NCBI GenBank assembly: GCA_964631605.1
Contig: CAZVYG010000010.1
Span: 22,353-86,352, forward strand
Direction: 5' to 3'
Source: an uncultured Verrucomicrobiota bacterium
GTDB lineage: Bacteria; Verrucomicrobiota; Verrucomicrobiia; Limisphaerales; UBA8199
DNA length: 64,000 nucleotides
Position numbers and translations under genes: made by a program. The stretch's first letter is position 1. The number at the start of each line of letters is the position of its first letter. Below the pieces are notes generated by a model. The model searched no databases. It saw only the letters and a program-made list of their open reading frames with translations, and was not told where the DNA came from. Below, one piece after another: positions 9,066-42,480 of the stretch.

Positions 9066-9719
9066 ATGTCAGCGATTTTTCCCAAGTGGACCAACCGGTT
9101 GCCGCTCATGGTATTGACGGGGGGGGTGTTGGTGGGGGGCGCCCTGGTGGCTGGGGCTTGGTATTATCTGACGCCCAAGTACTCCCGGGTGGGTTACAAG
9201 CCCATCCAGCCGGTGGCCTTTTCGCACAACACGCACGTGAGCCAGTTGGGCATGGACTGCCGTTATTGCCACAACGCGGTGGAACAATCCTGGTATTCGA
9301 ACCTTCCCGACAGCGCCAAGTGCATGAATTGTCATAACCAGGTGTTGAAGGATGATCCGCGCCTGGCCTTGGTGCGCCAAAGTGCGGCCACCGGCGAGCC
9401 GATTCCCTGGGTGCAGATTCATCGCGTGCCCGACTACGTTTATTTCAACCATTCGGTGCATGTCACCCGCGGCATAAGCTGCGTGGAATGCCACGGTCAA
9501 ATTGACCAAATGGAGGAGGCCTATCACGCGCAGCCGTTGAGCATGACTTTTTGTCTGGATTGCCATCGGCATCCGGAGTTGAAGCTCCGGCCGCTGGACA
9601 AGATCACCGACCTCACCTGGCGACCGGAATCGCCGTTGCAGCAGCGCGAATTTGGTCAGCGCGCCATCAACGATTGGAAAGTCGAGTCGCTGGAAAACTG
9701 CTCCGCATGCCACCGATGA
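9066..9719 (+). CDS. actA: alternative complex III subunit ActA, pentaheme cytochrome c
   Basis: Five CXXCH motifs (CRYCH, CMNCH, CVECH, CLDCH, CSACH), N-terminal TM anchor, GAGGA 8 nt upstream of the ATG. Confidence 0.9.
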   Translation: MSAIFPKWTNRLPLMVLTGGVLVGGALVAGAWYYLTPKYSRVGYKPIQPVAFSHNTHVSQLGMDCRYCHNAVEQSWYSNLPDSAKCMNCHNQVLKDDPRLALVRQSAATGEPIPWVQIHRVPDYVYFNHSVHVTRGISCVECHGQIDQMEEAYHAQPLSMTFCLDCHRHPELKLRPLDKITDLTWRPESPLQQREFGQRAINDWKVESLENCSACHR

Positions 9720-12700
9720 ACACCCTGCCTCCCGTATCCCAGCCTTTGGAATCCGGCCGCGCATATTGGCGGAGCTTGGATCAGTTGTCCGACACGCCCG
9801 AATTCCGCCAATGGCTGGAGCGGGAATTTCCCGAGGGCGCCAGTGAATGGCTGGACCCGGTGTCGCGGCGGCACTTCGTGCGGATCATGTCGGCGTCATT
9901 TCTGTTGGCGGGTCTGGGGCTGGCGGGCACGGGGTGCCGGCGGCCCGAGCAGAAGATTGTCCCCTTCAGCAAGATGCCGGAGAATTACACGCATGGGGTC
10001 CCGCAGTTCTATGCGACCTCCATGCCAACCCGGGGCGGGGCCTTGCCGCTGGTGGTCAAGTCTCACGACGGCCGCCCAACCAAGATCGAGGGCAATGCCC
10101 TGCATCCGGACAGTAATGGCGGCACGGACCGCTTCGCGCAGGCCTCGATCCTGAACCTGTATGATCCCGACCGTGCCACACGCTTTTTGAAGGACGGCGC
10201 GGCGACTACGCCGGAAGTGGCGCTGGATTTTCTCTCGGCGCTGTCCCGACAAGTCCAGAACGGCGGCGGACAGAAGCTGGCCGTGCTGGTCGAACGTCAT
10301 TCGTCTCCGTCGCGGGAGCGGCTGCTGGACCTGTTGACCGGAAAGCTGGGGGCGCGGGTGTACGTTTATGAGCCGGTTGAAACGGCGGCGGATCAATTGG
10401 CGGCGCAGCAGGCCTTTGGGCGCCCGGTCAAACCCATTCCGCATTTTGACCGCGCCAAAGTGATTCTTTCGCTGGATTGCGATTTCCTGGGGGCGGAGGA
10501 CGGCGTGCATAATCACATCCGGCGGTTTGCGCAGGGACGGAAGATGGAGAAGCCGGACGACGCGCTCAACCGGCTTTACTCGGTGGAGAGCCTGCTGACC
10601 TTGACGGGCGCCAACGCGGACCATCGCTTGCGCGTGCCGAGCAGCGCCGTGGCGCTGGTTGCGGCGGCCATCGCCAACCACGTGATAAAAGGAGGCCCCA
10701 GCGTTCAAGGCCTCAATCAAGTTGCGCCGCCGCCAGGGGTGGATCCGAAGTGGTTGGTGGAATGCGCCAAGGATTTGCTGCAGCACCCGGGTGAGTGTCT
10801 GGTGGTGGCTGGGCACCGCCAGCCGCAGGTGGTTCACCTGCTGGCCTATGCCATGAATGCGGCGCTGGGCAACCTGGGCAAGACATTGGTTTTGAACGAG
10901 GCGCCCGCAGTGCGGAACCAGGGCCTTTCAGAACTCGCCCGCGCCCTTCATGCCGGCCAGGTGGAGACGCTGGTGATCCTCGGCTGCAATCCCGTGGCGA
11001 CCGCGCCCGCAGACTTGGATTGGGTCAACGCGCAGAAGAAAGCGCGGACGGTGCTGCGCCTGGGATACTACGAAGATGAAACCGCGCCATTGTGCACCTG
11101 GCACCTGCCCGCCGCTCATTACCTGGAATCCTGGGGCGACGGTTTGGCGCAGGATGGCACCCTCGTGCCGGTGCAACCGCTCATTGCCCCCCTCTTTGGC
11201 GGGTTGACCGAGCTGGAGGTGCTGGCCCGCATCGCGGGTTACAAAACGACCAGCCCCTACGAAATTGTGCGCGAGACCTTTGCCGGTTACGTCAAAGGGG
11301 CGAACTTCGAGGAGGCATGGAAGAAATTTCTGCATGACGGTTTCCTGGCCGGATCAGCGGCCAAGCCTGCTGCGGTCTCTTTCAATCCCGCCCCGCTGGC
11401 TGAGGCGCTCTCGAGCCTCAAACCCAGCCTGCCATCCAAAGACCGGCTCGAGGTGGTTTTCCATCTTGATTACAGCGTGGATGATGGCCGATACAACAAC
11501 AACGGCTGGCTGCAGGAGATGCCCGATCCCATCACCAAAATGACATGGGACAATGCAGTTCTGGTCAGCCGCAAAACCGCCCAGGAACTTGGGGTGAAGA
11601 ACAACGACATGGTCGAGATTGCGCTCGAGGGGCGGGTGGCGCGCGGCCCCATCTGGATTCAGCCGGGTTTGGCCGATTATTCGCTGGGCCTGGCCCTCGG
11701 CTATGGCCGAAGCCGCACCGGGCGGGTGGGGCACAAAACCGGCTTCGATGTCTATCCGTTGCGGACGACGGCGGCGGAGCATTTCGCGGTTGGGGCGACG
11801 ATCAAGCGCCTGGGGGCAACCTATCCGCTCTCCTGCACTCAGGACCATTGGTCCATGGAAGGCCGGCCGATTGTGCGCGAGGCCAACTTGAGCCAGTACC
11901 GCGAGCATCCGGATTTTGCGACCCGGATGAACGCCGAAGAGCCTCCCGTCAACCAATCCCTTTACCCCAACCCGCTGGACAAGCTGAAGCCCAGTGCGCT
12001 GCATCAGTGGGGGATGGCGATTGACCTCAACCAGTGCGTCGGCTGTTCGGCGTGCATCATGGCGTGCCAGAGCGAGAACAACGTCCCCATCGTGGGCAAG
12101 GACCAGGTCAAACGGGGGCGCGAGATGCACTGGATTCGGATTGACCGCTATTACGCCGGCAATCCCGCGCGGCGCAAGTTCACCGAGAGCTACCAGCTCG
12201 AGCAACAGCAGCAGTTCGAGGATTGGGTGGATGATCCCCAGGTGGTGACCCAGCCCATGCTCTGCCAGCATTGCGAGGCGGCGCCGTGCGAAAATGTCTG
12301 CCCGGTCAACGCCACGGTGCATGATCAGGAGGGGCTCAACGTCATGGTTTACAACCGGTGTGTGGGCACGCGGTATTGCTCGAACAACTGTCCCTACAAG
12401 GTGCGCCGGTTCAACTACTTTGATTACAACAAACGGCCCATCACCGCTCTGTATCTCGGCCCGTTCGGACGTCGCAAGGATGACGAATGGGACCTGCTGA
12501 AGATGGTGAAGAATCCCGACGTGACCGTACGGATGCGCGGGGTGATGGAGAAATGCACCTTCTGCGTGCAGCGAATTGAAGGGGCCAAGATTGCGCAAAA
12601 GGTCAAGGCGGGCGCGACCGGCGAGGTGGTGGTGCCGGAGGGGACGTTTACCACGGCCTGCGCCCAGGCTTGTCCGGCCGGCGCAATTGTCTTCGGCAAC

Positions 12701-12949
12701 CTGAATGATCCCAACAGCCGCGTGTCCAAACTCAAACAGCAGGACCGCAATTACAGCGTGCTGGATCTGTTGTTGACCAAGCCCAGGCTGACCTATCTGG
12801 CCCGGGTCCGAAACCCCAATCCCGCCATGCCGGACTACCAGGAAGCCCCCTTAAGTTTCGAGCATTTCCGCGACAAGATGGGTGATCCATTCAAGCACAC
12901 AGGCGCGGGCCATGGAACTGGCCGCCCGATTGGGAAAGGAGGGCACTGA
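9716..12949 (+). CDS. actB: alternative complex III subunit ActB (Tat-signal molybdopterin-oxidoreductase-like domain fused to a 4Fe-4S domain)
   Basis: ATG at 9716 overlaps the actA TGA. Tat-like [17 protein letters not shown]. Fe-S Cys clusters [44 protein letters not shown]. Confidence 0.9.
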
Positions 12950-14379
12950 TGGCCGCTCACGCGACTCCCTTGACCATTCCCGAGCCACCGGCCGAGCTGC
13001 AGCGGCCGTTGCTGGTGGATAACTACCGGAGTCTTGGCTGGATTTCCAACCGGGTCTGCTCGCTCACCGAGGGCAAGGCGCCGATCTGGTGGTGGGTGTT
13101 GCTCATTCCGAGTGTTCTCGCCCTGGGCATGTTGCTCTTCATGCTGGGATACCAGATTTCCACCGGCGTGGGCGTCTGGGGCAACATGCACCCGGTCATG
13201 TGGGGCTGGGATATTATCAATTTCGTTTGGTGGATCGGCATCGGGCACGCCGGCACGCTGATTTCCGCCATTTTGTTTTTACTGCGCCAACGCTGGCGCA
13301 CGGCGGTGAACCGGGCGGCCGAGGCGATGACCATCTTTGCGGTCATGTGCGCCGGCATCTACCCCGCGCTGCATGTGGGGCGGGTTTGGTACGACTGGTG
13401 GCTGTTCCCCATTCCGAACTCCAACTCGATCTGGCCGCAGTTCCGGTCGCCATTGATGTGGGACGTGTTTGCGGTCTCGACCTATTTCACCGTGTCCGTG
13501 TTGTTTTGGTACATGGGCTTGATTCCCGACCTGGCGGTGATGCGGGACCGGGCGCGGACCAAAATCCGCCAATTTGCCTACGGCCTGTTCGCGCTGGGGT
13601 GGACCGGTTCAAACCGGCATTGGAGCAATTACGAGAAGGCGTATTTGATACTGGCCGGGCTTTCCACCCCGCTGGTGCTTTCCGTGCACTCGATCGTCTC
13701 GTTGGACTTCGCCGTCTCCCAGGTGCCCGGCTGGCATACCACCATTTTCCCCCCGTACTTTGTCGCCGGCGCGATTTTCTCCGGTTTCGGCATGGTGCTC
13801 ACGCTGCTGATTCCCTTGCGCAGCATTTTCAAACTTCAGGACATCATCACCCTGCGGCACATAGACGTAATGTGCAAGGTGACGCTGGCCACGGGCTCCA
13901 TCGTGGGCTACGCGTATGGGATGGAGTTTTTCATCGCCTGGTACAGCGGCAGCCCGTATGAGCGATTTGCGTTCATCAACCGGGCGCTGGGACCCTATTG
14001 GTGGGGGTATTGGACCATGATCCTCTGCAACGTGGTGGTGCCGCAGTTGTTCTGGTTCAAGTCGCTGCGGCAAAATCTGGTGGTGGTGTTTATTATCTCC
14101 ATCCTTGTGAACATTGGCATGTGGTTTGAGCGTTTCGTGATCATCGTCATCTCGCTCCATCGGGACTTTGTGCCGGCCAATTGGGGGTACTATTCGCCCT
14201 CGTGGGTGGACATCTGCACTTACATCGGCACGTTTGGGCTGTTCTTCACTCTGTTTTTGCTGTTCATCCGGTTCCTGCCGATGATCGCAATTTCCGAAGT
14301 CAAAGGCGTGACCCCGCAGTCGGATCCGCACCATCCACTCGGCGGCGCCAAAATCAAGGAGATGGCACTCCATGAATAA
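12949..14379 (+). CDS. actC: alternative complex III subunit ActC (NrfD/PsrC-family quinol-interacting membrane subunit)
   Basis: 476 aa polytopic membrane protein; TGATG overlap with actB; position and NrfD-like helices. Confidence 0.85.
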
Positions 14380-14911
14380 CCCTTCCAAACCTTACGGCAT
14401 GATCGCCGAATTCCGCACCGCGGCGGACATCCTGCACGCGGCGGAGAAAGTGCGGGACGCGGGGTACCGCAAGTGGGATGTATTCACCCCCTTCCCGGTG
14501 CATGGGATGGACCGCGCCATGGGATTAAAGAACTCGAAGGTGGGTTGGTTTGCGTTCCTGGGCGGGGTGACGGGTTACACAACGGGCATGCTGATGATCT
14601 GGTTCATGAACGCGCTGGATTATCCGCTGGTGGTGGGTGGCAAGCCGATGTTCAGCCCCTTTTACGCCTTCCCGCCCTCTTATGAACTGACGATTCTGTT
14701 CGGGGCCTTTGGCTCGCTGTTTGGGATGTTGTTCCTGAACCGGCTCCCGCGGCTTTATCATCCCCTGCTCAAGAACCGACGGTTCGCGCTGGTGACCCAT
14801 GACCGGTTCTTCCTGGTCATCGAGTGCGCCGACCCGAAGTATTCGGAGCCGGAAGTTCGCAAGTTGCTCGAGGGAGCCGGCAGCCGGCATATCGAGGTGG
14901 TGGAGGACTAA
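14372..14911 (+). CDS. actD: alternative complex III subunit ActD (DUF3341)
   Basis: [38 protein letters not shown] followed by two TM helices; overlaps actC by 8 nt. Confidence 0.8.
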
Positions 14912-15555
14912 TGCGCTATTTTCTCGCCATCTTCGCCGTTTGTGTGGTGGCCGTGGTCGCCCTCCTGGGCTTTCGCGGCAGTCACTTCCGCCAGCCGCCG
15001 CTCCGCATCTTCCCGGACATGGAGTTTCAATTAAAGCTCCGGCCGCAGGCGCCGAACGGTTTCTTCCCCAATGGGCGGACCTCCCAACTCCCGGTTCCGG
15101 GCACGATCCCGCGCGGAGTCGCGGTTCAGACGGTGTCGGGGCCGGTGTTTCCCTTCGAGGATGCGCCGGTCAACACCGGCTGGAAGACGGGCACGACGAA
15201 CTTTGTCGAGCACAACCCGCTGCGCATCACCTCGGCGTTGCTCAAGCGGGGGCAGCAGCGCTACACGATCAATTGCGCCCCCTGCCACGGCGGGCTGGGG
15301 GATGGGAATGGGATCACGCGGAAGATTGGGGCGATGGCAGTGGTGGCCAATTTGCATGACAAGCGCATTGTGGAGATGCCGGACGGCGAGATTTTTTACG
15401 TGATCACCCACGGGCGGAACCTCATGGGGGCTTACGGGGCGCAGGTGACGCCGCAGGACCGGTGGGCGGTGGTGGCCTACTTGCGCGCGCTCCAACTGGC
15501 GCGGTTGGGGGAGCTGGAGGATTTGCCGCCGCAACAGCGAACCCTATTGAAATAA
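14911..15555 (+). CDS. actE: alternative complex III subunit ActE, monoheme cytochrome c
   Basis: TAATG overlap with actD; N-terminal anchor [16 protein letters not shown]; single CAPCH; Met ligand region ITHGRNLMGAYG. Confidence 0.85.
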   Translation: MRYFLAIFAVCVVAVVALLGFRGSHFRQPPLRIFPDMEFQLKLRPQAPNGFFPNGRTSQLPVPGTIPRGVAVQTVSGPVFPFEDAPVNTGWKTGTTNFVEHNPLRITSALLKRGQQRYTINCAPCHGGLGDGNGITRKIGAMAVVANLHDKRIVEMPDGEIFYVITHGRNLMGAYGAQVTPQDRWAVVAYLRALQLARLGELEDLPPQQRTLLK

Positions 15556-15562
15556 TGGCTGT

Positions 15563-16822
15563 ATGAAGAAATCCGTGTCCACCCCGCTGGATTTGTCCCG
15601 ATGGCGGATTGTGCCGACGGTGCTGATGGCCGCGGGCGGCCTGCTTGCGCTCCTGGGTTTTTTCGTGAATCGCCAACAGTTCGCGTTCTCGTGGCTGCTG
15701 GCCTTCATGTTTTTTCTGAGCCTGAGCGCGGGGGCGCTGTTCCTGGTGATGGCGCACCATTTGTTCGATGCCGGCTGGTCGGTGCCGATCCGGCGGTTTC
15801 TCGAGCACCTGGCGTGTTTGTTTCCCTGGCTGGCGGTGTTGTTTCTCCCGGTGGCCCTGCTGGCGCCGACGCTCTATGAGTGGATGAGCCTGGACCCGCA
15901 TTTGGATCACGCGTTGCACGCCAAGCAGCCTTTGTTTACGCGGCCGATGTTTTATGTGGTGTCGGCAGTTTGCTTCGCGGTGTGGATTATTCTGTCCAAC
16001 CGGCTGCGCCACTGGTCGCTCGAGCAGGACCGGACCGGGACGGCGCTGCCCACCCACCGGATGCGGTTTTATTCCTGCGCGGGGATTTTTCTCTTTGCGA
16101 TCACGTTGACGCTGGGGGCGATCCTGTGGATGAAGGCGCTGCAGCACCAGTGGTTCTCGACCATGTACGGCGTGTATTATTTTGCCGGCAGTGTCTGGAT
16201 GACGCTGGGGACGGCCTACGTTATCACCATGGTATTGGACCGGCAGGGAGTGCTGAGCGATGCCCTGCATGATCACCAGTACTATTTCCTGGGGTCGCTG
16301 CTCTTCGCGTTCACGGTGTTTTACGCCTACATCCATTTCTCGCAGTATTTCATCATCTGGAACGGGAATATGCCGGAGGAGACCTTTTGGTATGCCTTGC
16401 GGGAGAAGGGAACGTGGTGGTGGGTGGGAATGGTGATTATTTTCGGGCATTTTTTCGTCCCCTTCCTCGCGTTGTTGCGGATTGATGTGAAAAGCGTGTT
16501 TGGCTATATGACCCCGCTGTGCGTCTGGACATGGTTGATGCATTACCTTGACTTGTCTTTTAACATTATGCCCGTGAAACATCCCAATGGATTCGTTTTG
16601 CATTGGATTGATCTCGGGTGCTGGGCGTTTATGGCGGGCCTGCTGGCCACGATGTTCCTGCGGGCGTACTGGAGGCACGCCCCGTATCCGGTGAAAGACC
16701 CGCGCCTGGTGGAGGCGATGGGATTTGCGCATCCGATTCCGACACAAATCTCGGGCGGGGAGCTGGATGAGTGTGATGATACCCCGGCGGTGCATCCCGA
16801 GGTGCAGGGAGGTGGGCGATGA
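15563..16822 (+). CDS. actF: alternative complex III subunit ActF (ActC-like membrane subunit)
   Basis: 419 aa polytopic membrane protein in the canonical position after actE. Confidence 0.8.
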   Translation: MKKSVSTPLDLSRWRIVPTVLMAAGGLLALLGFFVNRQQFAFSWLLAFMFFLSLSAGALFLVMAHHLFDAGWSVPIRRFLEHLACLFPWLAVLFLPVALLAPTLYEWMSLDPHLDHALHAKQPLFTRPMFYVVSAVCFAVWIILSNRLRHWSLEQDRTGTALPTHRMRFYSCAGIFLFAITLTLGAILWMKALQHQWFSTMYGVYYFAGSVWMTLGTAYVITMVLDRQGVLSDALHDHQYYFLGSLLFAFTVFYAYIHFSQYFIIWNGNMPEETFWYALREKGTWWWVGMVIIFGHFFVPFLALLRIDVKSVFGYMTPLCVWTWLMHYLDLSFNIMPVKHPNGFVLHWIDLGCWAFMAGLLATMFLRAYWRHAPYPVKDPRLVEAMGFAHPIPTQISGGELDECDDTPAVHPEVQGGGR

Positions 16823-17193
16823 ACGGAACTGATTCCAGCCGGGGGACTTCAGCGGCGGTGGCGGTGGCCATTGTGGGGACGTTCCTGATTGTCGCGGCGC
16901 TGGTGGGGGTGATGCGTCGGCATACCCAGGCGCCCGCGGTGGATGCGGTGCGGATTGCCGAGCGCGCGAAAGCCCTGGCGGAGTTGCGCGAGGCGGAGAC
17001 GGTGGCTTTGAGCACCCCGGCATGGATTGACCAGGGCAAGGGGCTGGTGCGGCTGCCCATCACCCACGCAATGGAACTGGTGCTTCGGGGGTGGGAGAAT
17101 CCGGCGACGGCCAGATCGAATTTGATTGCGCGGGTGGAAAAGGCGACGGCGGCGCCGCCAAAGGCGCCGGAGAAACCGAGCGAGTTTGAGTGA
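16819..17193 (+). CDS. single-pass membrane protein of the ACIII operon (ActG position), function unknown
   Basis: ATGA overlap with actF; TM AAVAVAIVGTFLIVAALVGV; no recognisable family. Confidence 0.6.
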   Translation: MNGTDSSRGTSAAVAVAIVGTFLIVAALVGVMRRHTQAPAVDAVRIAERAKALAELREAETVALSTPAWIDQGKGLVRLPITHAMELVLRGWENPATARSNLIARVEKATAAPPKAPEKPSEFE

Positions 17194-18659
17194 TGGTTTC
17201 TCCCGAGGAAAAGGTCAGGGAGGCTGAAGGCGCTCCGACGGTTGACGTTTCGAGCGCGGAAAGCGGGGCGTCCTGCCGCTGGCCGGTGTTAATGTTGTTT
17301 TTGGGGGCGGCATTGTGGCTGGCGGCGGGGGCGGCGCTGGGTCTCATTGCTTCGATCAAGTTTCATTCACCGATGTTTTTGGCGGAGCCGGCGTGGTTGA
17401 CCTACGGCCGGGTGAAGGCGGCGAGCGCGGCGCTACTGGTCCATGGTTTTTGTGTGCCGGCGGGTTTGGGTGTGGGTTTGTGGTTGATATCACGACTGGG
17501 CCGGGTGGCGCTGGCAGGCGGGGCGCTGGGCGTGTTTGGCGCGTGGTTGTTGCATCTGGGTGTGGCAGCGGGGCTGGTCGGCGTGTTAAGGGGGGAGGGC
17601 CTGGGGTTTTTTCATTTGGAATTTCCGGCGGGCGCGGCGGCCCTGGTGTTTTTGGGATACTTGCTGTTGGGGACCATCGGCGTGCTGACCTTGTATCGTC
17701 GGCGGGAGTCCCGGATGGAGGCGGCGCAGTGGTTTGTGCTGGCGGGCTTGTTCTGGTTCGGCTGGATTTACTCGACGGCGAATTTGTGTTTGGCGTTGTT
17801 TCCGGTGCGGGGCGTGGCGCAGGCGGCGATTCATTACTGGCACACGGGTAATCTGTTGGTGGTCTGGATGGGGTTAATGGGACTGGGGGCGGCGTTCGGC
17901 CTGGGGCCGCGGCTGGCGGGCCGGGAGTTGAACAGTGATTATCTGGCGATGTTTGTGTTTTGGGTGTTGTTGCTTTTTGGGAGCTGGGCGGGCATACCAG
18001 CCACCGCGCCGTTGCCGGCGTGGATGCCCGCCTTGAGCACGGTGGGAACGGTGTTGAGCGGGTTGGGGGCGCTGGGGGTGGTGGTAATCGGGTATCGGAC
18101 GGTGGACGGGGATTATGGTGTGGTGTGGAGAGATGAACGGTTGCGGTTTCTGGCCTTGGGGCTGGCGGCTTATGTGTTGGGGGGCGTGATGCAGGTGGTG
18201 GAAGCGCTTAGCGGGGGCGTGTGGATGCTGCATTTCACCTGGTTTTCGGCGGCGAGGGAGTGGTTCCAAGTCTATGGTTTTTTTGCCCTGGTGATGTTTG
18301 CCGGAATCTACACGATTGTGCCGGGACTTCTGGGCTGTGATTGGTGGAGCCGGCGTCTGGTGCGGTTGCATTTTTGGCTGGCGGCCGCCGGGCTCGTTTT
18401 GGTGTCGGTGCCGCTGGCGGTTGGGGGTGTGGTCGAGAGCGGGAGGCTGCTAAATCCGGCGGCTGGCTTTGTGGAGGTGAGCCGGGGCACATTGATGTAT
18501 TTGCGGGTCAGCACGGTTGGGGAGTTGCTGATATTGGCGGGCAACGGTTTGTTCCTGGTGAACTTGGCGTTGGGGGTGGCTGGCTATTGTCGGCGGGTGT
18601 TGGCGGGGGCGGCGCGGCGATGGGGGGCGCAGGAGCTAGGCGAGGGGGCGCGAGTATGA
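17193..18659 (+). CDS. cbb3-type cytochrome oxidase subunit I (CcoN)-like membrane protein with degenerate metal-ligand positions
   Basis: 12-TM-like protein alignable by eye to CcoN (YGRVKAA..., IHYWHTGN, FGSWAGIP, LHFTWF, RLHFWLAAAG). TGATG overlap upstream and ATGA overlap downstream. Confidence 0.7.
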   Translation: MVSPEEKVREAEGAPTVDVSSAESGASCRWPVLMLFLGAALWLAAGAALGLIASIKFHSPMFLAEPAWLTYGRVKAASAALLVHGFCVPAGLGVGLWLISRLGRVALAGGALGVFGAWLLHLGVAAGLVGVLRGEGLGFFHLEFPAGAAALVFLGYLLLGTIGVLTLYRRRESRMEAAQWFVLAGLFWFGWIYSTANLCLALFPVRGVAQAAIHYWHTGNLLVVWMGLMGLGAAFGLGPRLAGRELNSDYLAMFVFWVLLLFGSWAGIPATAPLPAWMPALSTVGTVLSGLGALGVVVIGYRTVDGDYGVVWRDERLRFLALGLAAYVLGGVMQVVEALSGGVWMLHFTWFSAAREWFQVYGFFALVMFAGIYTIVPGLLGCDWWSRRLVRLHFWLAAAGLVLVSVPLAVGGVVESGRLLNPAAGFVEVSRGTLMYLRVSTVGELLILAGNGLFLVNLALGVAGYCRRVLAGAARRWGAQELGEGARV

Positions 18660-19561
18660 GGCACGGGGCCTTGGTGTATTTGGGCGCGTTCTTCGCGCTG
18701 GCGATGTCCTGGGCGGGGTTTGTGCTGACGCCACAGATGCAGGTGGGCCAGATGGTGGCGACCAATACCTTGTCGGCGGGGGCAAGGTACCCCGTGGCGC
18801 GGCCAGGCCTCGCCCAGCAAGGATTGCAGGTCTATCGGGCCAACGGGTGCGCGTATTGTCACAGCCAGCAGGTTTGGCAGCGGGGCACGGTCTTTGATGT
18901 GATGTTGACGGATGGGGGAACGAACCAGGCAGGCGTGGTGGCCGCCTTGCAGGCCGTGATGCCGCGGTTGTCAAGACCGGAGGCCTTGGGAATGCTCGAG
19001 GGCTTGCCCAAGGTGGTGGTGAAGGGAGTAAGCCGCGAGGAGGCTGAGAGCGCCATCAAGAAGTTGACAACCAGTGGAGCCAAGGCGGCGTTGTGGATTG
19101 AGCCGGTCGGGCCGGACATGGCGCGGGGCTGGGGCAGGCGACGGACGGTGCCGGAGGATTTCCTGTACGACTATCCCGTAATGCTCGGCGGCCAGCGGGT
19201 GGGACCGGATTTGGCGAATATCGGGGTGCGGCAGCCGGATGAAAGATGGCACTTGAGGCATTTGTACGCCCCGGGTTCGGTGGTCGCAGGTTCGGTGATG
19301 CCGGGGTATCCGTATCTGTTCGAAGAGCGGCGGGTCGTCGGAGAGGGCTCGCCGGACGCGCTGGCGATGAGCGGGCAACATGCGCCCGCGGCCGGATACG
19401 AGGTTGTCCCGAAGCCGGAGGCCAAGGCGCTGGCGGCGTATTTGGTCAGTTTGCGCGCGGAGGCGCCGTTGTTTACCGCGCCGTTGAGTCTTGCGGCCTC
19501 CGGGGCAGGGGGTGCGTCGGCCACCAACGGGGCGCCGGTTGCAGGAGGGGGGGCGCGATGA
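18656..19561 (+). CDS. cbb3-type oxidase subunit II (CcoO)-like monoheme cytochrome c with an inserted L7/L12-CTD-like domain
   Basis: N-terminal TM, GLQVYRANGCAYCHSQ, later GGQRVGPDLANIGVRQPDERWHLRHLYAPGSVVAGSVMPGYPYLF. About 70 extra residues lie between these conserved blocks. Confidence 0.8.
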   Translation: MRHGALVYLGAFFALAMSWAGFVLTPQMQVGQMVATNTLSAGARYPVARPGLAQQGLQVYRANGCAYCHSQQVWQRGTVFDVMLTDGGTNQAGVVAALQAVMPRLSRPEALGMLEGLPKVVVKGVSREEAESAIKKLTTSGAKAALWIEPVGPDMARGWGRRRTVPEDFLYDYPVMLGGQRVGPDLANIGVRQPDERWHLRHLYAPGSVVAGSVMPGYPYLFEERRVVGEGSPDALAMSGQHAPAAGYEVVPKPEAKALAAYLVSLRAEAPLFTAPLSLAASGAGGASATNGAPVAGGGAR

Positions 19562-20160
19562 AACCGGAGGTGCAAGTCGGGACGCAGAACGCGTCGGCCA
19601 ACCACGAGCTCTCGGGGGCGCGAGGGGCGGTGCCGATGTGGCTTTTTGTTTTGCTCTTCGTGGGGCTGTTCTGGGGCATGAATTATTTTGACCGGCATGG
19701 TGGATGGTTTGACGGGCGGGTGTACGCGCCCTATCGGTCGGTGGCGGAGTTGCAGATGTATCAGCCCCCGACCGGGGGCATTAATTTGGAGCGTGGCCGG
19801 GCGCTTTATGAAAGTGTGTGCGCCCTGTGTCATGGCGTGGATGGAAAGGGGAAGGCGGGGCAGGCGCCGCCGCTGACCGGGAGCGATTGGGTATTGGGGC
19901 CGGTGAATCGGCTGGTCCGGATTCCGCTGGCGGGATTGACCGGGCCGCTTGAGGTCAATGGCCAACAATGGAATCTGGCAATGCCGGCGATGGGAGCGGC
20001 GATGTCGGATGAGGATTTGGCGGCGGTGTTGAGTTACATGCGGGCTTCCTGGGGCAACAAGGGCACGGAGGTGACGCCCGAACAGGTCGGTGCGGTGCGC
20101 AAGGAAATCGGCAACCGGTCGCAGCCCTTTACGGCGGCGGAGTTGCTGACTGTGCAGTGA
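19558..20160 (+). CDS. membrane-anchored class I monoheme cytochrome c
   Basis: ATGA overlap with the upstream gene; TM VPMWLFVLLFVGLFWG; CALCH; Met ligand region NLAMPAMG. Confidence 0.8.
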   Translation: MKPEVQVGTQNASANHELSGARGAVPMWLFVLLFVGLFWGMNYFDRHGGWFDGRVYAPYRSVAELQMYQPPTGGINLERGRALYESVCALCHGVDGKGKAGQAPPLTGSDWVLGPVNRLVRIPLAGLTGPLEVNGQQWNLAMPAMGAAMSDEDLAAVLSYMRASWGNKGTEVTPEQVGAVRKEIGNRSQPFTAAELLTVQ

Positions 20161-20707: not shown

Positions 20708-23329
20708 ATGAAAGCAAGACTGACCGTCACCCTCCTTTGGTTTGCACTCTTGCCGTGCCTGCTTGCGCAAACTACTGATGATTACGTAAAACAAGGACGA
20801 GCCTACCTCGCGGCGACAGACATCCTTGCTGCAGACCGTTGCTTCTCGAATGCCGTGGCGCAATCCCCAAATCACCAAGTGGCCAACGTCCTTTATGCAG
20901 TTACCCGATTGGCGACGTTGCCGTACAAGCAGCCCACTGGCGACTTCTTGAGCCGGCTGGGGTTTCCCCAGGCGGGCCGTAACATCTATAACTGGACCGC
21001 AGCTTTGTTGGTCGATGCCGATCAGGTGCCGTTGATGCCCACGGGAGTCAGTGCCAGCGAGTTTACCGCGGTTTTGCGCACGAATATCCTTCCTGTCGTC
21101 GTCGCGGCGGAGGCAAATCTTGCGACTGTGACGGATGCCGGTTTCACGCTGGCGCTGAAAGCCAGCGAAACCCGCACCGTGGATGTTGTTCTCGATTATG
21201 GTGATATCCAAATGGCGCGCGCATTACTCCGGGCTGCAGAGTACTGCATCTACAATGCCTATTCTTGGAATATCGAGGCGGAGTTGACAGCAATCCGGGC
21301 GATGTTTGACCTGGACCAACCGACAACGCTCGAAGAGGTGTTTATCGCCTATCCCGAACTTCTGACCTTCGCGACGACCAACGACTTGAACGCCGCAAAA
21401 ATGTCGTTCCAGAAGTGCGTGGACCATTACCTGGCTGCGTCGCTCTTCATTCGCAGCAACCGTCCTCCCGCCGCCGTGCGGCTCTTTAACCTCGATCCTG
21501 ACAGGACAGCCGACGAAGAGAAATTTCGGTGGACTCTGGCACAACTGAAGGATTCCCTGTCGCGGGCGGTTACGCTGAGGGTGGAAACTAATTACACCGT
21601 CTTCGCGGGGGCGTTGTTTAGCGACCCCAAATCACCGCGGCTCTTTCTTCCATGCATACGCGGCAATAGCTTTGGCCTGGGCACCTTGCCGGACCAAACT
21701 TTCGGAGGCACAATTCAGGGGCTTTCCAACCTGACAGTGGATCAGTTTCTTGCCCGGTATATTGAACCCATGCCCACCCTTGGTGCAGGGTCCCGCAAAC
21801 CTGGAGGTCGGTTCGAGTTTCTACTAAACCTCGCAGAGGGCCGGGGTTATGTAGTCCAGATTTCGACCAACCTCCTTGATTGGACCGATTACCTTGCTTT
21901 CTTTGCGAGCGACTGGTTCTACAACTTTGCCGACCCCGCTGCGGCCCTTAATTCGCGGTGCTTTTATCGAGTTGTGGACCGTACAACTAATATGCCACCG
22001 CCCCCCAACGACAATTTCAGCGGCCGCCTTGCCATCCCCGGATTGGACTCGCCGGTAAATGGTTATAACGTGAGTGCGACGCTGGGGCCTGGAGAATCGG
22101 ATTGGACTGAAGGCTTCGGCAAAACAATTTGGTGGAGCTGGACCTCAACTGTATCTGGGGAAGTCGCGGTCGTAGCTCCGCCCCGTAAATTTGTCGCCGT
22201 GTTTACCGGCAGCACTCTCCATGGCTTAACACAGCTCGCCCGCGGCTGGACCCAGGTGAATTTCGTTGCCCAAGCCGGTACAACATATCAGTTCCTATTG
22301 GACAGTGTATGGTACGACACTGAACCAACGATGCGCCTGGTGGTCACTCGGCCACCAACACTGGTCATTACCGCTCCCACAAATAATGCTGAGTACTATT
22401 CCCCAGCCACTGTCATGATCGCAGGCCTGGCATGGGACCCAAGCGGCCAAGTACCGGAAGTCATTGCCGAGGGCTTTATTGGGGGCGCGATCCTCTATGA
22501 GACCAACGCCAACAACTTCAGTTTTCTGCTTACTAACGTGCCGCCAGGCAATTACTCCCTCACTCTTTCTGCGATAAACAGTTCAGGTGCTCAAACCCAG
22601 GAAGAGCGCTCTTTTCGTGTAACTCCGCCCAACAACATGTTTTCCAACGCCATTCCCATCGTGGGCTCTCCATTGCTCGTCGTGGGTTCCAACCGCAACG
22701 CGAACCGGGAAGATGCCGAGCCGCAGCACGGCTATTGGTACGATGCCGCTTCTGTCTGGTGGGCTTGGACGCCGACCAACAGCGGTCCCGTGACAATTGC
22801 CTGCGCGTTCGGGAATGGATATACTCCAAGCCTTGGCGTTTACACGGGCCACACCCTTTCCACTCTGACACGCGTGACCAACAGTGTGCGGTCCAACACG
22901 GTCGCCTTGGCGCAGTTCACGGCGACCGCCGGAATGACTTATAAAATCGCTGTTGATTCTGAAAGCTATGAGGAAGGAGACATCTACTTGGGTATTAACT
23001 TCTCCCCTGTTCCGCCACTGCCTGCCATCCCACTTGCATTTGGGGTTCCCGCCAACAACCTCACCGGTTCATTTGACAGCGAAACGCTTTACAGGATAGA
23101 CGTCCCCGACGGGCTTGCCTCCTTGCGAATTAGCATCGCCGGCGGCACGGGTGACTGCGACCTATACGTGCGCTACGGGTTGCGGCCCAGTTTGACGGAT
23201 TATGATTTTGCCCCGTACTTGGATGGGAACGACGAGACAGTGACCATCACAACCCCGGCACCAGGGTATTGGTATATTCTGCTTTACGGGTTTGGCTCTT
23301 ACTCGGGGGTTTCCCTGCTGGCACAGTGA
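20708..23329 (+). CDS. large secreted protein: signal peptide, FYRV-motif domain, two repeats of an N-x-N-F...WW-x-WT domain, C-terminal pre-peptidase (PPC)-like domain
   Basis: Signal MKARLTVTLLWFALLPCLLAQ. Internal duplication (PPNDNFSG...TIWWSWTSTVSG...TYQFLLDS vs PPNNMFSN...SVWWAWTPTNSG...TYKIAVDS). C-terminus GTGDCDLYVRYG...GYWYILLYGF. Confidence 0.75.
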   Translation: MKARLTVTLLWFALLPCLLAQTTDDYVKQGRAYLAATDILAADRCFSNAVAQSPNHQVANVLYAVTRLATLPYKQPTGDFLSRLGFPQAGRNIYNWTAALLVDADQVPLMPTGVSASEFTAVLRTNILPVVVAAEANLATVTDAGFTLALKASETRTVDVVLDYGDIQMARALLRAAEYCIYNAYSWNIEAELTAIRAMFDLDQPTTLEEVFIAYPELLTFATTNDLNAAKMSFQKCVDHYLAASLFIRSNRPPAAVRLFNLDPDRTADEEKFRWTLAQLKDSLSRAVTLRVETNYTVFAGALFSDPKSPRLFLPCIRGNSFGLGTLPDQTFGGTIQGLSNLTVDQFLARYIEPMPTLGAGSRKPGGRFEFLLNLAEGRGYVVQISTNLLDWTDYLAFFASDWFYNFADPAAALNSRCFYRVVDRTTNMPPPPNDNFSGRLAIPGLDSPVNGYNVSATLGPGESDWTEGFGKTIWWSWTSTVSGEVAVVAPPRKFVAVFTGSTLHGLTQLARGWTQVNFVAQAGTTYQFLLDSVWYDTEPTMRLVVTRPPTLVITAPTNNAEYYSPATVMIAGLAWDPSGQVPEVIAEGFIGGAILYETNANNFSFLLTNVPPGNYSLTLSAINSSGAQTQEERSFRVTPPNNMFSNAIPIVGSPLLVVGSNRNANREDAEPQHGYWYDAASVWWAWTPTNSGPVTIACAFGNGYTPSLGVYTGHTLSTLTRVTNSVRSNTVALAQFTATAGMTYKIAVDSESYEEGDIYLGINFSPVPPLPAIPLAFGVPANNLTGSFDSETLYRIDVPDGLASLRISIAGGTGDCDLYVRYGLRPSLTDYDFAPYLDGNDETVTITTPAPGYWYILLYGFGSYSGVSLLAQ

Positions 23330-23738
23330 AGCTCCAGCAGCCGTGAAGGAAACTGGACCAAGCAATAGGAACCGGAATTCGAATCAAGCTTCGGCGCAGC
23401 CGCCCCGTTGCTGACGCCTCCCAGCGTTAGGTGCCCTCCGACACAGATATGTAACGCTTGCGTTCATACGCGCCGATGCGGCGCGTCGCTTGGTAGGGCG
23501 TGTGGATGGTAATGCACCGCTGTGGCCAACGGTCTTACACATACAACGCTGCCGGCGGGCCTAAAACCCCAAGGCCTTCGCCCGGGGCACCCCGTAAAAT
23601 CTCCCCTATTTCATGTTCCCCTCCGCAAAAAATGTATAGCGGGAGTCATTATTCGGGGCTATTTTGCCGGCTTTGAGCACCCACGATGGGTCAGGGCCGG
23701 CAACGCCGTGGCTGGCGGCGCTGGCGACCCAAATCGAA

Positions 23739-24854
23739 ATGACAAAACCTGTTAATCCAGACGTGTCCGCCGCCGGCGAGGACACCAGCAGCTCGCGACC
23801 GAGTGATCCTGCCCAAGACAGCGGGCGGCTGACCAATCGGGAGCGGTTTCTGGCCGCGTGCCGTTGTCAGCGGCTGGATCGCCCGCCGGTGTGGCTGATG
23901 CGGCAGGCGGGGCGGGCCTTGCCGGAATACCGTGCCCTCAAGGGAAAACACACCTTTTTGGAGCTGGTGCAGACCCCGGAGTTGGCCGCGGAAGTGACTT
24001 TGCAGCCGATTCGGAGGTTTGATTTCGACGCGGCGATTCTGTTCAGCGACATCCTGGTCATTGCCGAAGGGCTGGGTCAGAAATACCAGTTTCGCGACCA
24101 GGGAGGGATCGAAATGGAGTTTCTGCTGCAGAGCCCAGCCGACATCGAGCGGCTCGAACCGGGGGCTGTGTGCGAGCGGCTGCAGTACGTGGCGCGGGCG
24201 TTAAAACTGATCAAGCGCGAACTCAAAGGGCGCACAGCCTTGATCGGCTTCGCGGGGTCGCCCTGGACGCTGGCGAATTTCATGATTCAGGGCGGGGGAG
24301 TGAAGGAATACACCAAAGCCAAGGCGCTTTTTTACTCTGACCCCGCCCTCTTCGGGCGGCTGATGGAGAAGTTGACGGTTGCCATCAGCGACTTTTTGCG
24401 GCTCCAAATTGACGCGGGGGCGGAAGCGGTCCAGATTTTTGATAGTCTCGGCGGGGTGTTGTCCGACGGCAGCTTCGGGCCCGCCTCGGCGACGTGGATG
24501 AAACGAATTGTGGAATCGCTAAAAAACCGGGTGCCGGTGATTGTTTTCAGCAAGGGCGCGCATGGCAATTGGGCTGAATTGGTGGAGACAGGGGCCCAGG
24601 TGCTGGGAGCGGATTGGACGGTGCGTCTGGCGGACCTCGCGCGGCGGCTGCCGGCCAAGGTCGGCCTGCAGGGGAACCTGGACCCGTTCGTGTTGACCAC
24701 CACTCCGGACGTGGTGGGCAGGGAAACGGCTCGCATTTTGCGCGAAATGAACGGGCGGCCCGGGCACATCTTCAATCTCGGACACGGCGTGACACCCGGG
24801 GCGAAGCTGGAAAACATCGAACGCCTGGTCGCGACCGTGCGCGAATACAAATGA
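23739..24854 (+). CDS. hemE: uroporphyrinogen decarboxylase
   Basis: Internal ATG at 23739. RPPVWLMRQAGRALPEYRAL, AILFSDILVIAEGLG. Confidence 0.9.
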   Translation: MTKPVNPDVSAAGEDTSSSRPSDPAQDSGRLTNRERFLAACRCQRLDRPPVWLMRQAGRALPEYRALKGKHTFLELVQTPELAAEVTLQPIRRFDFDAAILFSDILVIAEGLGQKYQFRDQGGIEMEFLLQSPADIERLEPGAVCERLQYVARALKLIKRELKGRTALIGFAGSPWTLANFMIQGGGVKEYTKAKALFYSDPALFGRLMEKLTVAISDFLRLQIDAGAEAVQIFDSLGGVLSDGSFGPASATWMKRIVESLKNRVPVIVFSKGAHGNWAELVETGAQVLGADWTVRLADLARRLPAKVGLQGNLDPFVLTTTPDVVGRETARILREMNGRPGHIFNLGHGVTPGAKLENIERLVATVREYK

Positions 24855-26227
24855 GCATGCTGACCGTTGATCTCGAGCTGGTGAAGAAATACAACGTGGC
24901 GGGGCCGCGTTATACCTCCTATCCTCCCGCCACAAAGTTCACCGAGGCGCTGAAATGGCCCGAGCTGGCCGAATTGCTGATCGAGAACAACCGGACGGAG
25001 CGCGACCTCTCCCTCTACTTCCACATCCCCTTTTGCGAGACCCTGTGCTGGTACTGCGGCTGCACCACCGTCATCACGCTCAACCACGCCCAGGGCGATG
25101 CCTACGTTCGTTACCTGGACAAGGAGATGGCGCAGATGAGCGCGCTGCTCAACCCGCGCCGCAAGGCGGTGCAACTCCATTGGGGCGGGGGATCACCGAC
25201 CTTTCTAACCGCGGACGAAATCCGGCGGCTGGGGGAGAGCATCCGGCGCCATTTTCCTTTTTCGGAGGATATTGAGGCGGGAGTGGAAGTGGACCCGCGG
25301 CGCCTCACGCGGGATCACATTGTGGCGTTGCGCGAAATCGGGTTCAACCGGGCCTCGCTGGGGGTCCAGGATTTTGACCCGACCGTCATGAAAGCGGTGC
25401 ACCGGGTTCAGCCGCGGGAGTTGACCGAGCAGGTGCTGGGCTGGGTGCGGGAGCTGGGTTTCAGCTCGGTGAATTTCGACCTGATTTACGGTTTGCCTTA
25501 CCAGACGGTCGAGTCTTTCAATCGCACGCTGGACGCGGTGATTGAGATGGGGCCGGACCGGCTGGCGGTCTTCAGCTACGCCCATGTGCCCTGGGTGAAA
25601 CCGGCGCAGCGAATTCTCGAGCAGAAGGTCCTGCCGACCGCCGAAGTCAAATTGCAGCTCCTCAAGACCGTGATCGAGCGTCTGACGGCGGACAACCGCT
25701 ACGTGTATATCGGCATGGATCATTTCGCACGGCCGACGGACGAACTGGCCGTGGCGCAGAGCCGGAAGCAACTGCAAAGAAATTTTCAGGGCTACAGCAC
25801 CCGCGGCGGGGCTGATATCTACGCTTTTGGCATGTCGTCCATTTCACAAATACCGGAAGCCTACTGGCAGAACGAGAAGGACCTGCCGAAGTATTATGCC
25901 GCGTTGGACGCCGGCCAGGTGCCCCTGGCGCGCGGGTACCTCGTCACCGAGGAGGACAAGATTCGGCGCGAGACCATCATGCGGGTGATGTGCGACTTGT
26001 CCCTGAACTATGCGGCGATGTCCCGGCGCCTGGGGATCAATTTCGCGGCGCATTTCCAGCGCGAGCTGGAATCCCTGGCCGGATTCGAGGCCGACGGTTT
26101 GGTGCGCCGCACGGCGGAGGGCATGGAAGTCACCGGCACCGGCCGCCTCTTCATTCGCAATATCGCCATGAGTTTTGACAACACCCTCGCACCCGTGGGC
26201 GAGCGGAAACATTCGCGCACGATTTGA
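24851..26227 (+). CDS. hemN: oxygen-independent coproporphyrinogen III oxidase (radical SAM)
   Basis: ATGA overlap with hemE. GPRYTSYPPA, LYFHIPFCETLCWYCGC (CxxxCxxC plus a fourth Cys). Confidence 0.9.
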   Translation: MSMLTVDLELVKKYNVAGPRYTSYPPATKFTEALKWPELAELLIENNRTERDLSLYFHIPFCETLCWYCGCTTVITLNHAQGDAYVRYLDKEMAQMSALLNPRRKAVQLHWGGGSPTFLTADEIRRLGESIRRHFPFSEDIEAGVEVDPRRLTRDHIVALREIGFNRASLGVQDFDPTVMKAVHRVQPRELTEQVLGWVRELGFSSVNFDLIYGLPYQTVESFNRTLDAVIEMGPDRLAVFSYAHVPWVKPAQRILEQKVLPTAEVKLQLLKTVIERLTADNRYVYIGMDHFARPTDELAVAQSRKQLQRNFQGYSTRGGADIYAFGMSSISQIPEAYWQNEKDLPKYYAALDAGQVPLARGYLVTEEDKIRRETIMRVMCDLSLNYAAMSRRLGINFAAHFQRELESLAGFEADGLVRRTAEGMEVTGTGRLFIRNIAMSFDNTLAPVGERKHSRTI

Positions 26228-26288
26228 CGACGGGCGGGACCCCCTGAACGATGCCGGGAAAGCAATCGAAACTGGCCGCGAAAACGTG

Positions 26289-42174: not shown

Positions 42175-42480
42175 ATGGCTGTAATTGTGCAATTCGATTT
42201 TCCGTTTCCGGGCCCATTCGGAGCCGATATGGAGAGCGGTCTCAAAGACCTGGCCTTGTCCATCACGCAGGAGCCGGGTTTCCTTTGGAAAATTTGGACG
42301 GAAAACTCCAGAGATCAGGAGGCAGGTGGCATTTACCTGTTCAGGGATCGGCCTTCCGCCGAGGCCTACGTGGCCAAGCACACCGCGCGCCTGGCGCGGT
42401 TCGGTGTCCAAAACGCCCGAGCCAAAGTTTTTGAAATCAATGCCGGCCTCACTCGAATCACCCATGGTCCGTGTGCGTGA
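42175..42480 (+). CDS. ydhR: YdhR-family putative monooxygenase (dimeric alpha-beta barrel)
   Basis: 101 aa. FDFPFPGPFG...QEPGFLWKIWTEN...EAGGIYLF...AYVAKHTARL closely parallels E. coli YdhR as recalled. Confidence 0.8.
   Translation: MAVIVQFDFPFPGPFGADMESGLKDLALSITQEPGFLWKIWTENSRDQEAGGIYLFRDRPSAEAYVAKHTARLARFGVQNARAKVFEINAGLTRITHGPCA

Follow-up and report, generated by a model that had tools for sequence, protein, structure and literature searches.

A bL12 C-terminal-domain homologue inserted in a CcoO-type cytochrome, next to a ligand-less CcoN, in an alternative complex III operon of Verrucomicrobiota

We analyzed a stretch of 64,000 nucleotides from an uncultured verrucomicrobial bacterium of the order Limisphaerales (contig CAZVYG010000010.1, positions 22,353 to 86,352; hereafter, the window). 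One gene in this window encodes a CcoO/FixO-like, membrane-anchored monohaem cytochrome c of 301 amino acids (aa) (18656..19561, + strand), and residues 77–151 of its product (18884..19108, +) are a true homologue of the C-terminal domain (CTD) of the ribosomal stalk protein bL12, inserted after the CcoO haem motif. The adjacent gene encodes a homologue of CcoN, the subunit I of cbb3 oxidases, that has lost every metal-binding residue; the cluster is therefore probably not the cbb3 oxidase that it is annotated to be. We consider this loss of the oxidase centre the more consequential of the two findings. That the domain is a bL12 CTD homologue and that CcoN has lost its ligands are both, in our assessment, nearly certain. 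The explanation as a whole, in which the cbb3-derived proteins would form an exapted, non-catalytic module of alternative complex III (ACIII) and the bL12-derived domain would be a structural or docking element of that module, has a probability that we put at roughly 60%. The system is an undescribed variant of the known CcoO, bL12-CTD, and ACIII operons and does not constitute a new category.

A bL12 C-terminal domain within a CcoO-type cytochrome

The 301-aa open reading frame (ORF), which begins with MRHGALVYLG, is called with an identical product by two independent public gene callers (JGI and Logan assemblies). Window positions 18890–19102, in frame with this ORF, translate to exactly the peptide that a first-pass annotation of the same DNA had quoted as a complete L7/L12 CTD-like module. 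The protein belongs to the Pfam FixO family (PF02433; 78.1 bits, gathering cut-off 29.6), and its score with the NCBIfam ccoO equivalog TIGR00781, 66.6 bits, lies far under the cut-off of 200.65. In a phmmer search of the PDB, its matches were cbb3 CcoO chains, including the solved structures 8smr_F and 3mk7_B, and bL12 chains. With CcoO/FixO, the subunit II of cbb3 oxidases (P. stutzeri, 3mk7_B), it shares an N-terminal anchor, a single CxxCH, the Met ligand of the MP-YP motif, the GPDL and WH-HLY motifs, and the position of its gene between a ccoN homologue and a cytochrome c gene.

The anchor, read from the sequence as the transmembrane segment LVYLGAFFALAMSWAGFVLT (approximately residues 6–25; 18671..18730, +), corresponds to a helix (residues 4–24) in the AlphaFold2 (AF2) model described below, and S18, W19, and V23 are invariant in 63 aligned orthologues. 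The haem c attachment motif C65-A-Y-C68-H69 (18848..18862, +) is the sole CxxCH of the protein, and Met215 (19298..19300, +), the predicted sixth haem ligand, is the Met of the MP-YP motif and aligns to the KMPsYPWL motif of solved CcoO. As C65, C68, H69, and M215 are invariant in all 63 orthologues, the haem site is kept. The conserved core 3' of the insert (19109..19465, +; GPD-ARGWG-RRTV...GPDLANIG...WHLRHLY...MPGYPYL...YLVSLR) aligns to residues 87–152 of CcoO in the PDB, with many invariant columns.

What sets the window protein apart from CcoO/FixO, besides its low score with the equivalog, is an insertion of ~75 aa after the haem motif. The insert begins 8 residues past the haem ligand His69. 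In the alignments to 3mk7_B and 8smr_F, the stretch from residue 73 to residue 164 of the query is matched by that from 73 to 87 of the chains, which amounts to a net insertion of ~75–77 aa and bears out the earlier statement that canonical CcoO has only a short loop at this site. The spacing between CxxCH and GPDL is 113 aa in the window protein vs 40 aa in insert-free relatives, such as that of Chthoniobacter flavus.

The Pfam profile Ribosomal_L12 (PF00542) matches the insert from end to end, over profile positions 1–66 of 67, with 38.3 bits (E 1.7e-9) in the whole protein and 41.9 bits (E 1.3e-10) when the inserted segment is searched alone, against a cut-off of 25.9; the match proper covers residues 80–145 (18893–19090, +). 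The NCBIfam L12 profile TIGR00855 matches at E 1.4e-7 and 31–32 bits, against a cut-off of 84.4, through its positions 54–123 alone. Unlike a whole bL12 protein of ~120–130 aa, the insert lacks both the N-terminal dimerisation/L10-binding domain and the flexible hinge, and it sits in a loop of another protein, with CcoO sequence on both flanks. A phmmer search of the PDB returned the CTD of E. coli L7/L12 (1ctf) at E 5.8e-5, and a profile built from 27 orthologous inserts matched bL12 chains alone in the PDB, covering the whole domain of 1ctf at E 7e-11. Counted residue by residue, identity to the E. coli CTD is ~22/67 (33%), in keeping with the one third first estimated by eye; Foldseek gave 30–33%.

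We predicted the structure of the single chain with AF2 on the 63-sequence alignment and searched the PDB with the model using Foldseek. Residues ~80–150 were predicted with pLDDT 90–97 and form a β-α-α-β-α-β fold (strand 77–86, helix 91–101, helix 107–113, strand 119–125, helix 127–139, strand 143–151) that is superposable on solved bL12 CTDs. The first ten PDB places were all taken by bL12 CTDs. For M. tuberculosis 8yeq and E. coli 1ctf, the target-normalised TM scores were 0.90–0.92, with an rmsd of 1.0 Å over 67–69 columns, so that the superposition on an L12 CTD proposed as a check in the first-pass annotation comes out in its favour, as judged from the predicted model. ClpS, a known relative of the fold, came next, with TM scores of 0.6–0.7 and an rmsd of 2.2–3.6 Å. 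The likeness to the bL12 CTD family (PF00542) extends over all 67 residues in both fold and sequence and includes the structural signature: the helix cap G-x-N, the Pro preceding strand 2, the A/E/K/L positions of the last helix, and the G-A turn.

Since the domain is small and ClpS has the same general fold, a convergent β-α-α-β-α-β insertion with no homology to bL12 has to be considered. However, the matches are significant in both directions and over the full length (Pfam E 1e-10; insert profile against 1ctf), the 30–33% identity holds over columns that superpose at 1.0 Å, and the matches to ClpS are much weaker. Convergence is hardly credible under these conditions and is effectively refuted by the Pfam, Foldseek, and insert-profile searches. 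Chance resemblance is excluded.

The first and last strands of the bL12 CTD are approximately 6 residues long each; the corresponding strands of the insert in the AF2 model, 77–86 and 143–151, are longer. Because they exceed those of bL12 in length, the model suggests that they form a short two-stranded stalk that raises the domain off the cytochrome.

A CcoN homologue without metal ligands in an ACIII operon

The CcoO gene belongs to a single, translationally coupled operon (9066–20160) in which the gene junctions overlap by ATGA or GTGA. The 5' part of the operon (9066..16822, +) is an ACIII gene cluster comprising, by Pfam and NCBIfam matches and gene position, ActA, ActB, ActC, ActE, and ActF. 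ActA contains five CxxCH motifs (pentahaem c) and ActE contains one (monohaem c); ActB is Fe-S/molybdopterin-like, with Fer4 and QrcB/QrcC-like matches; ActC is NrfD-like; and ActF has no Pfam match, its position being conserved in related loci. The gap between ActF and CcoN holds a gene for a 124-aa single-pass membrane protein (p124; 16819..17193, +) with no Pfam or NCBIfam match. This gene is kept in position in most related loci, is called in public assemblies, and may encode an unnamed subunit. The gene for the CcoN-like protein follows (17190..18659, +), its stop overlapping the CcoO start, and the start of the last gene, encoding a 200-aa CcoP-like, membrane-anchored monohaem cytochrome c (19558..20160, +), overlaps the CcoO stop. 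The CcoP-like protein has one CxxCH and matches Pfam Cytochrome_CBB3 (E 4e-12) and, under the cut-off, NCBIfam ccoP (E 2e-10); its gene lies downstream in nearly all related loci. A 186-aa ORF at 14799–15359 (+) is an Arg/Gly-rich alternative frame overlapping ActE (14824–15555) and is probably no gene.

The CcoN-like protein matches Pfam COX1 over its full length (E 2e-32), yet is very divergent: it scores 75 bits with NCBIfam ccoN, for which the cut-off is 583. We located the ligand positions twice, by phmmer alignment with the P. aeruginosa CcoN of known structure (8smr_E) and by an independent MAFFT alignment with relatives, and the two agree. A cbb3-type subunit I has six His, which bind haem b (two), haem b3 (one), and CuB (three), and a cross-linked Tyr. 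None of these is found in the window protein, where P. stutzeri H60, H207, Y251, H257, H258, H345, and H347 are replaced by S79, G220, G264, P270, A271, R356, and W358, respectively. In the same alignment, the proteins of Opitutaceae, Tepidisphaerales, and some other Verrucomicrobia have H, H, Y, H, H, H, and H at these positions, and the flanks are clearly homologous, for example WSLALFYNWNGLHHLIGGPLPAWM aligned with WVLLLFGSWAGIPATAPLPAWM.

The ligand state of CcoN was scored in 67 loci, 38 with the CcoO insert and 29 without it. The ligands are lost in 36 of the insert loci; one further locus keeps three His, one has an incomplete sequence, and the full set occurs in none. The insert-free loci are divided between those with the full set (16) and those that have lost the ligands (12), with one incomplete sequence and none keeping three His. 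The ligand-less CcoN genes are not pseudogenes, since their dN/dS values of 0.03–0.24 are similar to those of intact CcoN (0.055–0.08); the pair L019/L025 was left out, its dN/dS of 1.37, with a dN of 2.2 at 84% identity, being a codon-register artefact. The locus with three His (L024; CAZPUL010000011.1) has kept those of CuB (equivalents of H207, H257, and H258) and lost the three that are haem ligands; its CcoO has a 119-aa spacing and a weak Pfam L12 match (19.5 bits). It is a possible intermediate in ligand loss.

The first-pass annotation had described the host of the insert as a respiratory cytochrome. As part of a working oxidase, this description appears untenable, as the adjacent CcoN lacks the six His and the Tyr and the unit is the 3' end of an ACIII operon; we infer that the cbb3-derived trio of CcoN, CcoO, and the third cytochrome no longer reduces O2. 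The set also differs from a cbb3 oxidase in that its third subunit is monohaem instead of dihaem and its genes are joined to an ACIII operon. In this latter respect, it resembles ACIII-caa3 of Rhodothermus marinus and ACIII-aa3 of Flavobacterium johnsoniae, where ActABCDEF-type genes are followed by genes of the haem-copper oxidase family in one operon. In contrast to these systems, the downstream module in the window is of the C family (cbb3-like) and has a ligand-less catalytic subunit, so that ACIII is linked here to a pseudo-oxidase. The structure from F. johnsoniae reportedly established the existence of ACIII-oxidase supercomplexes.

The genes ccoNOP are routinely taken as markers of high-affinity, microaerobic respiration in metagenomes. 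If the ACIII-linked set of Limisphaerales/Pedosphaerales-type Verrucomicrobiota and some Chthoniobacterales has a ligand-less CcoN, such inferences are wrong for a group that is abundant in soil and freshwater.

In the open full-text literature, subscription journals being outside our reach, we found no description of an L12-like domain in CcoO and none of a ligand-less CcoN beside ACIII. A 2012 paper on signature indels of the PVC group treats, for cbb3, just a 2-aa insert in subunit I (PMC3444138), and a 2026 paper on Limisphaera simply includes ACIII and a cbb3 oxidase in its list of respiratory complexes (PMC13608581). To this extent the insert is undescribed, as had been supposed, but the PF00542 tag is already assigned to such proteins automatically in databases.

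Distribution of the insert and selection acting on it

Among 5.8 billion protein clusters, a search found 2,319 of CcoO-family relatives, a total in which insert-bearing and insert-free proteins are both counted. The top 120 are all ~290–335 aa in length, and most are already tagged PF02433+PF00542; the insert is carried by each of the 63 orthologues in our alignment. When one genome per GTDB species was scanned, at least 534 relatives came up, of which 80 loci (L001–L080) were kept. The CxxCH-GPDL spacing in these loci is 35–46 aa where there is no insert (Chthoniobacter flavus Ellin428, Opitutaceae, Tepidisphaerales, and others), ~94 aa with a short insert (L019, L020, L025, L029, L030, L035, and L036), 106–137 aa in the majority, which have an L12-like insert, some with a nested extra piece (Verrucomicrobiia, Limisphaerales, and Pedosphaera-type metagenome-assembled genomes (MAGs)), and 182–184 aa with an expanded insert (L038 and L058). 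The inserts themselves are ~54 aa (short), ~72 aa (standard), or up to ~143 aa (expanded) long, all at one site. Alignment to a hidden Markov model (HMM) of the insert places the extra piece of L006 and L007 inside the domain and shows that the short variants lack profile positions 30–48, which correspond to helix 5. The short inserts and the largest ones (L038 and L058) are unrecognised by Pfam and share just the first strand with G-x-N and the last helix-G-A-strand.

The insert is fixed across a large clade of Verrucomicrobiota and is lineage-wide in a verrucomicrobial CcoO subfamily. The singular graft pictured in the first-pass annotation gives way to a lineage-wide element with short, standard, and expanded versions; the insert is not a one-off.

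A neighbour-joining (NJ) tree of the CcoO core was poorly resolved. In an NJ tree of ActC, ActF, and CcoN (1,207 columns, no bootstrap), the insert-bearing loci form one large clade, with mixed states near its base. The order of the operon genes is the same in nearly every related locus that is long enough, whether the insert is present or absent, and recurs in MAGs of Tepidisphaerales (Planctomycetota). We considered a connection between the insert and the organisation of the operon and rejected it, the order ACIII-CcoN-CcoO-cytochrome c being equal with and without the insert.

A few MAGs with the insert bear the label Acidoferrum, Bifidobacteriaceae, or Akkermansia. Labels from outside Verrucomicrobiota are found on loci L007 and L018 (Candidatus Acidoferrum), L025 and L054 (Bifidobacteriaceae), and L049 (Cyanophyceae); since all of these have the same verrucomicrobial-type operon, the labels probably are binning or labelling errors. 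NCBI names some CcoO-type cytochromes (P0003, P0020, P0058, and others) "ribosomal protein L7/L12"; JGI calls such proteins the cbb3 cytochrome c subunit but likewise gives a few the L7/L12 name. This looks like domain-driven misannotation, and the NCBI naming is an error bound to propagate.

The near-invariant positions of the insert are those of the fold and are conserved in bL12 too (G88-T89-N90, L98, P118, A130, K135, L137, and G141-A142); at the junction, W147, I148, and P150 are conserved. For E. coli bL12, we take the residues that bind translational GTPases to be K65, V66, I69, K70, R73, L80, E82, and K84. The equivalents of K65, V66, I69, K70, R73, and K84 have column entropies of 1.8–3.2 bits in the 63 orthologues and are among the most variable positions of the insert. 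The conserved helix-4/5 factor-binding surface of bL12 is therefore not present, and in the ~54-aa variants helix 5 is deleted altogether. Being inside a c-type cytochrome, the domain must moreover be periplasmic, in contrast to bL12 in the ribosome stalk. The translation-factor-recruiting property that had been ascribed to the insert is, by these measures, not retained.

Nei-Gojobori dN/dS ranges over 0.04–0.28 in the insert and 0.055–0.165 in the remainder of CcoO. The pair with the least saturation (L009/L010) has 0.042 in the insert and 0.055 in the core; most pairs show the insert changing faster than the core. Among ~40 insert-bearing loci, whose orthologues are just 42–60% identical, there are no frameshifts or stops. 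The insert is under purifying selection, and its low dN/dS indicates that the module is maintained by selection, though not for the function of bL12. These data bear on the view that the insert is a neutral passenger, a chance insertion tolerated in a non-functional oxidase and decaying there without a function of its own. Such a passenger could explain the patchy distribution with insert-free sister lineages, the truncated and heavily diverged versions beyond Pfam recognition, and the faster evolution of the insert in most pairs. It is nonetheless improbable, given dN/dS values far below 1, a frame intact in every insert-bearing locus at such low identities, a fold predicted at very high confidence, and the invariant haem ligands of the host.

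Possible roles of the inserted domain and genomic surroundings

In this lineage, CcoN has none of the ligands for haem b, haem b3, or CuB left, and the haem c sites of CcoO and of the third subunit are intact. We propose that the dead trio has been exapted and now forms a non-catalytic scaffold in the membrane that carries two c-haems, is attached to ACIII, and serves it as an electron exit or in assembly. A whole, independently folding bL12-CTD module has been inserted into the surface loop after the CxxCH of CcoO, a periplasmic monohaem cytochrome c. It would project from the periplasmic face of CcoO on its two-stranded stalk and provide a structural or docking element for contacts within the assembly or with a redox partner. 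Its action would not be that of bL12, as it has no dimerisation/L10-binding part, is periplasmic, and has a factor face that is least conserved or deleted.

In the order of events that we envisage, the catalytic centre was lost first, the L12 module was then gained in a subclade, and it was subsequently trimmed or expanded. This order is likely because none of the 38 insert loci shows the full set of CcoN ligands, whereas the insert-free loci are mixed, and the NJ tree of 1,207 columns, which has no support values, is compatible with it. All genes of the operon remain under purifying selection, dN/dS having been computed for the insert, the CcoO core, and CcoN. The cluster would offer a clean natural example in which catalysis was lost, selection was kept, and a domain was then gained, which bears on the evolution of respiratory supercomplexes. 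Taken separately from the rest of the explanation, the structural or docking role of the L12-like domain falls somewhat short of an even chance; the docking module suggested in the first-pass annotation is plausible.

Several observations weigh against this explanation. The insert is missing from L041, L044, L046, L048, and L068, all of them close relatives whose CcoN is likewise ligand-less, and must therefore be dispensable for the role of the dead module. Outside the fold-determining residues, the insert has no strongly conserved surface patch that would mark an interface. No partner of the domain was found among the tested subunits. Likewise, no indels tracking the insert were found in ActA, ActC, ActE, ActF, p124, CcoN, or the third cytochrome, with the exception of one weak 6-column block in the third cytochrome c (phi -0.64). 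In the single-chain model, the CcoO core at residues ~160–184 has a pLDDT below 50, and the loss of O2 reduction is read from sequence only.

As neither a partner nor a co-varying feature in other subunits was found, a passive lid or spacer stays a serious rival to a docking role, although we judge it unlikely. A domain of this kind would have no partner; it would cover the CcoO surface or the haem edge, or fill space freed from the CcoN/CcoP interface, and could stabilise the cytochrome or limit electron leakage. It would fit with conservation confined to fold and junction residues on a variable surface, with sizes from ~54 to ~143 aa at one site, with the lack of co-varying indels, and with the occurrence of the insert solely in lineages in which CcoN is already dead. 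In the least diverged pairs, however, purifying selection on the insert is approximately as strong as on the core; in the single-chain model, the domain seems to stand off on a stalk instead of packing flat; and a complete, autonomously folding domain is more than a lid would require.

To see the module outside this family, we searched 1.84 billion representatives with the insert profile (exhaustive HMMER), which yielded 1,957 proteins at E <= 1e-3. The best 150 of these comprise ~30 CcoO-type proteins, matched at approximately residues 74–153, some true bL12, and many non-ribosomal proteins with 2–7 tandem L12-CTD repeats. Some of the repeat proteins (P0123, P0124, and P0128) have, by eye, signal-peptide/lipobox-like leaders and are probably extracytoplasmic. 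In others, the repeats are fused to EF-Tu domains 2/3 (P0129 and P0143), a dynamin-like GTPase (P0157), PNP_UDP with pentapeptide repeats (P0160), a Zn-ribbon (P0133), or, by eye, a TIR-like N-terminus (P0172), and several look like proteins of defence systems. An L12-CTD module off the ribosome is hence not unique to CcoO: this domain of the ribosomal stalk has been taken into the periplasm and, as this search indicates, into many other non-ribosomal contexts. The repeat proteins share with CcoO the re-use of the L12-CTD off the ribosome, several of them probably outside the cytoplasm, but they carry it as terminal or tandem arrays, whereas the CcoO module is a single, internal, and more diverged copy. 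They keep the helix-4/5 signature K-I-x-V-I-K-x-V-R...T-G-L-G-L-K-E-A-K nearly intact; the corresponding part of the CcoO insert is degenerate (N-Q-x-A-L-x-A-A-L...K-P-G-L-S-E).

The repeat proteins raise the question of whether the CcoO insert could have retained a bL12-like activity, binding a GTPase or EF-like protein, for instance an exported protein with EF-Tu D2/D3 and L12 repeats, and thereby linking translation factors to respiration. In favour of this possibility are the bL12 fold and the existence of proteins in which a lipoprotein-type leader precedes both L12-CTD repeats and EF-Tu D2/D3. It is nevertheless highly improbable: the helix-4/5 signature is degenerate in the insert and deleted in its short variants, an insert-HMM search found no such L12-repeat gene in the window or the 80 related loci, and we know of no translational GTPase in the periplasm. 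In that six-frame search of the window and the 80 loci, the CcoO ORFs alone matched, and no other L12-like ORF that could be a source copy, a partner, or rplL was found. In particular, rplL is absent from the window; a separate genomic rplL is expected on general grounds, because the insert has no L10-binding domain.

A broader form of the docking explanation would combine three propositions: that in a large clade of Verrucomicrobiota the dead cbb3 remnant is a permanent accessory of ACIII, that the bL12-derived domain is the specific receptor at which a redox partner, a true terminal oxidase or a soluble carrier, docks, and that L12-CTDs make up an unrecognised class of extracytoplasmic interaction modules. 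Their joint truth is doubtful. Should they hold, the domain would represent a new type of respiratory supercomplex adaptor made from a ribosomal stalk domain.

The operon is directly followed by a gene (20708–23329, +) whose 873-aa product has Big_7 and, at the C-terminus, a PPC (pre-peptidase) domain; this gene also adjoins the operon in a JGI contig with an identical CcoO. A haem biosynthesis cluster lies ~3.5 kb 3' of the operon (23664–28768, +) and encodes URO-D/HemE, a HemN-like radical SAM protein, a protoporphyrinogen-oxidase-like flavoprotein, and ferrochelatase. Farther downstream, a polysaccharide lyase family 8 protein with CBM96 (36553–39972, -) and an M1 peptidase with HEAT repeats (42185–45169, +) represent ordinary verrucomicrobial gene content for the degradation of glycans and peptides, respectively.

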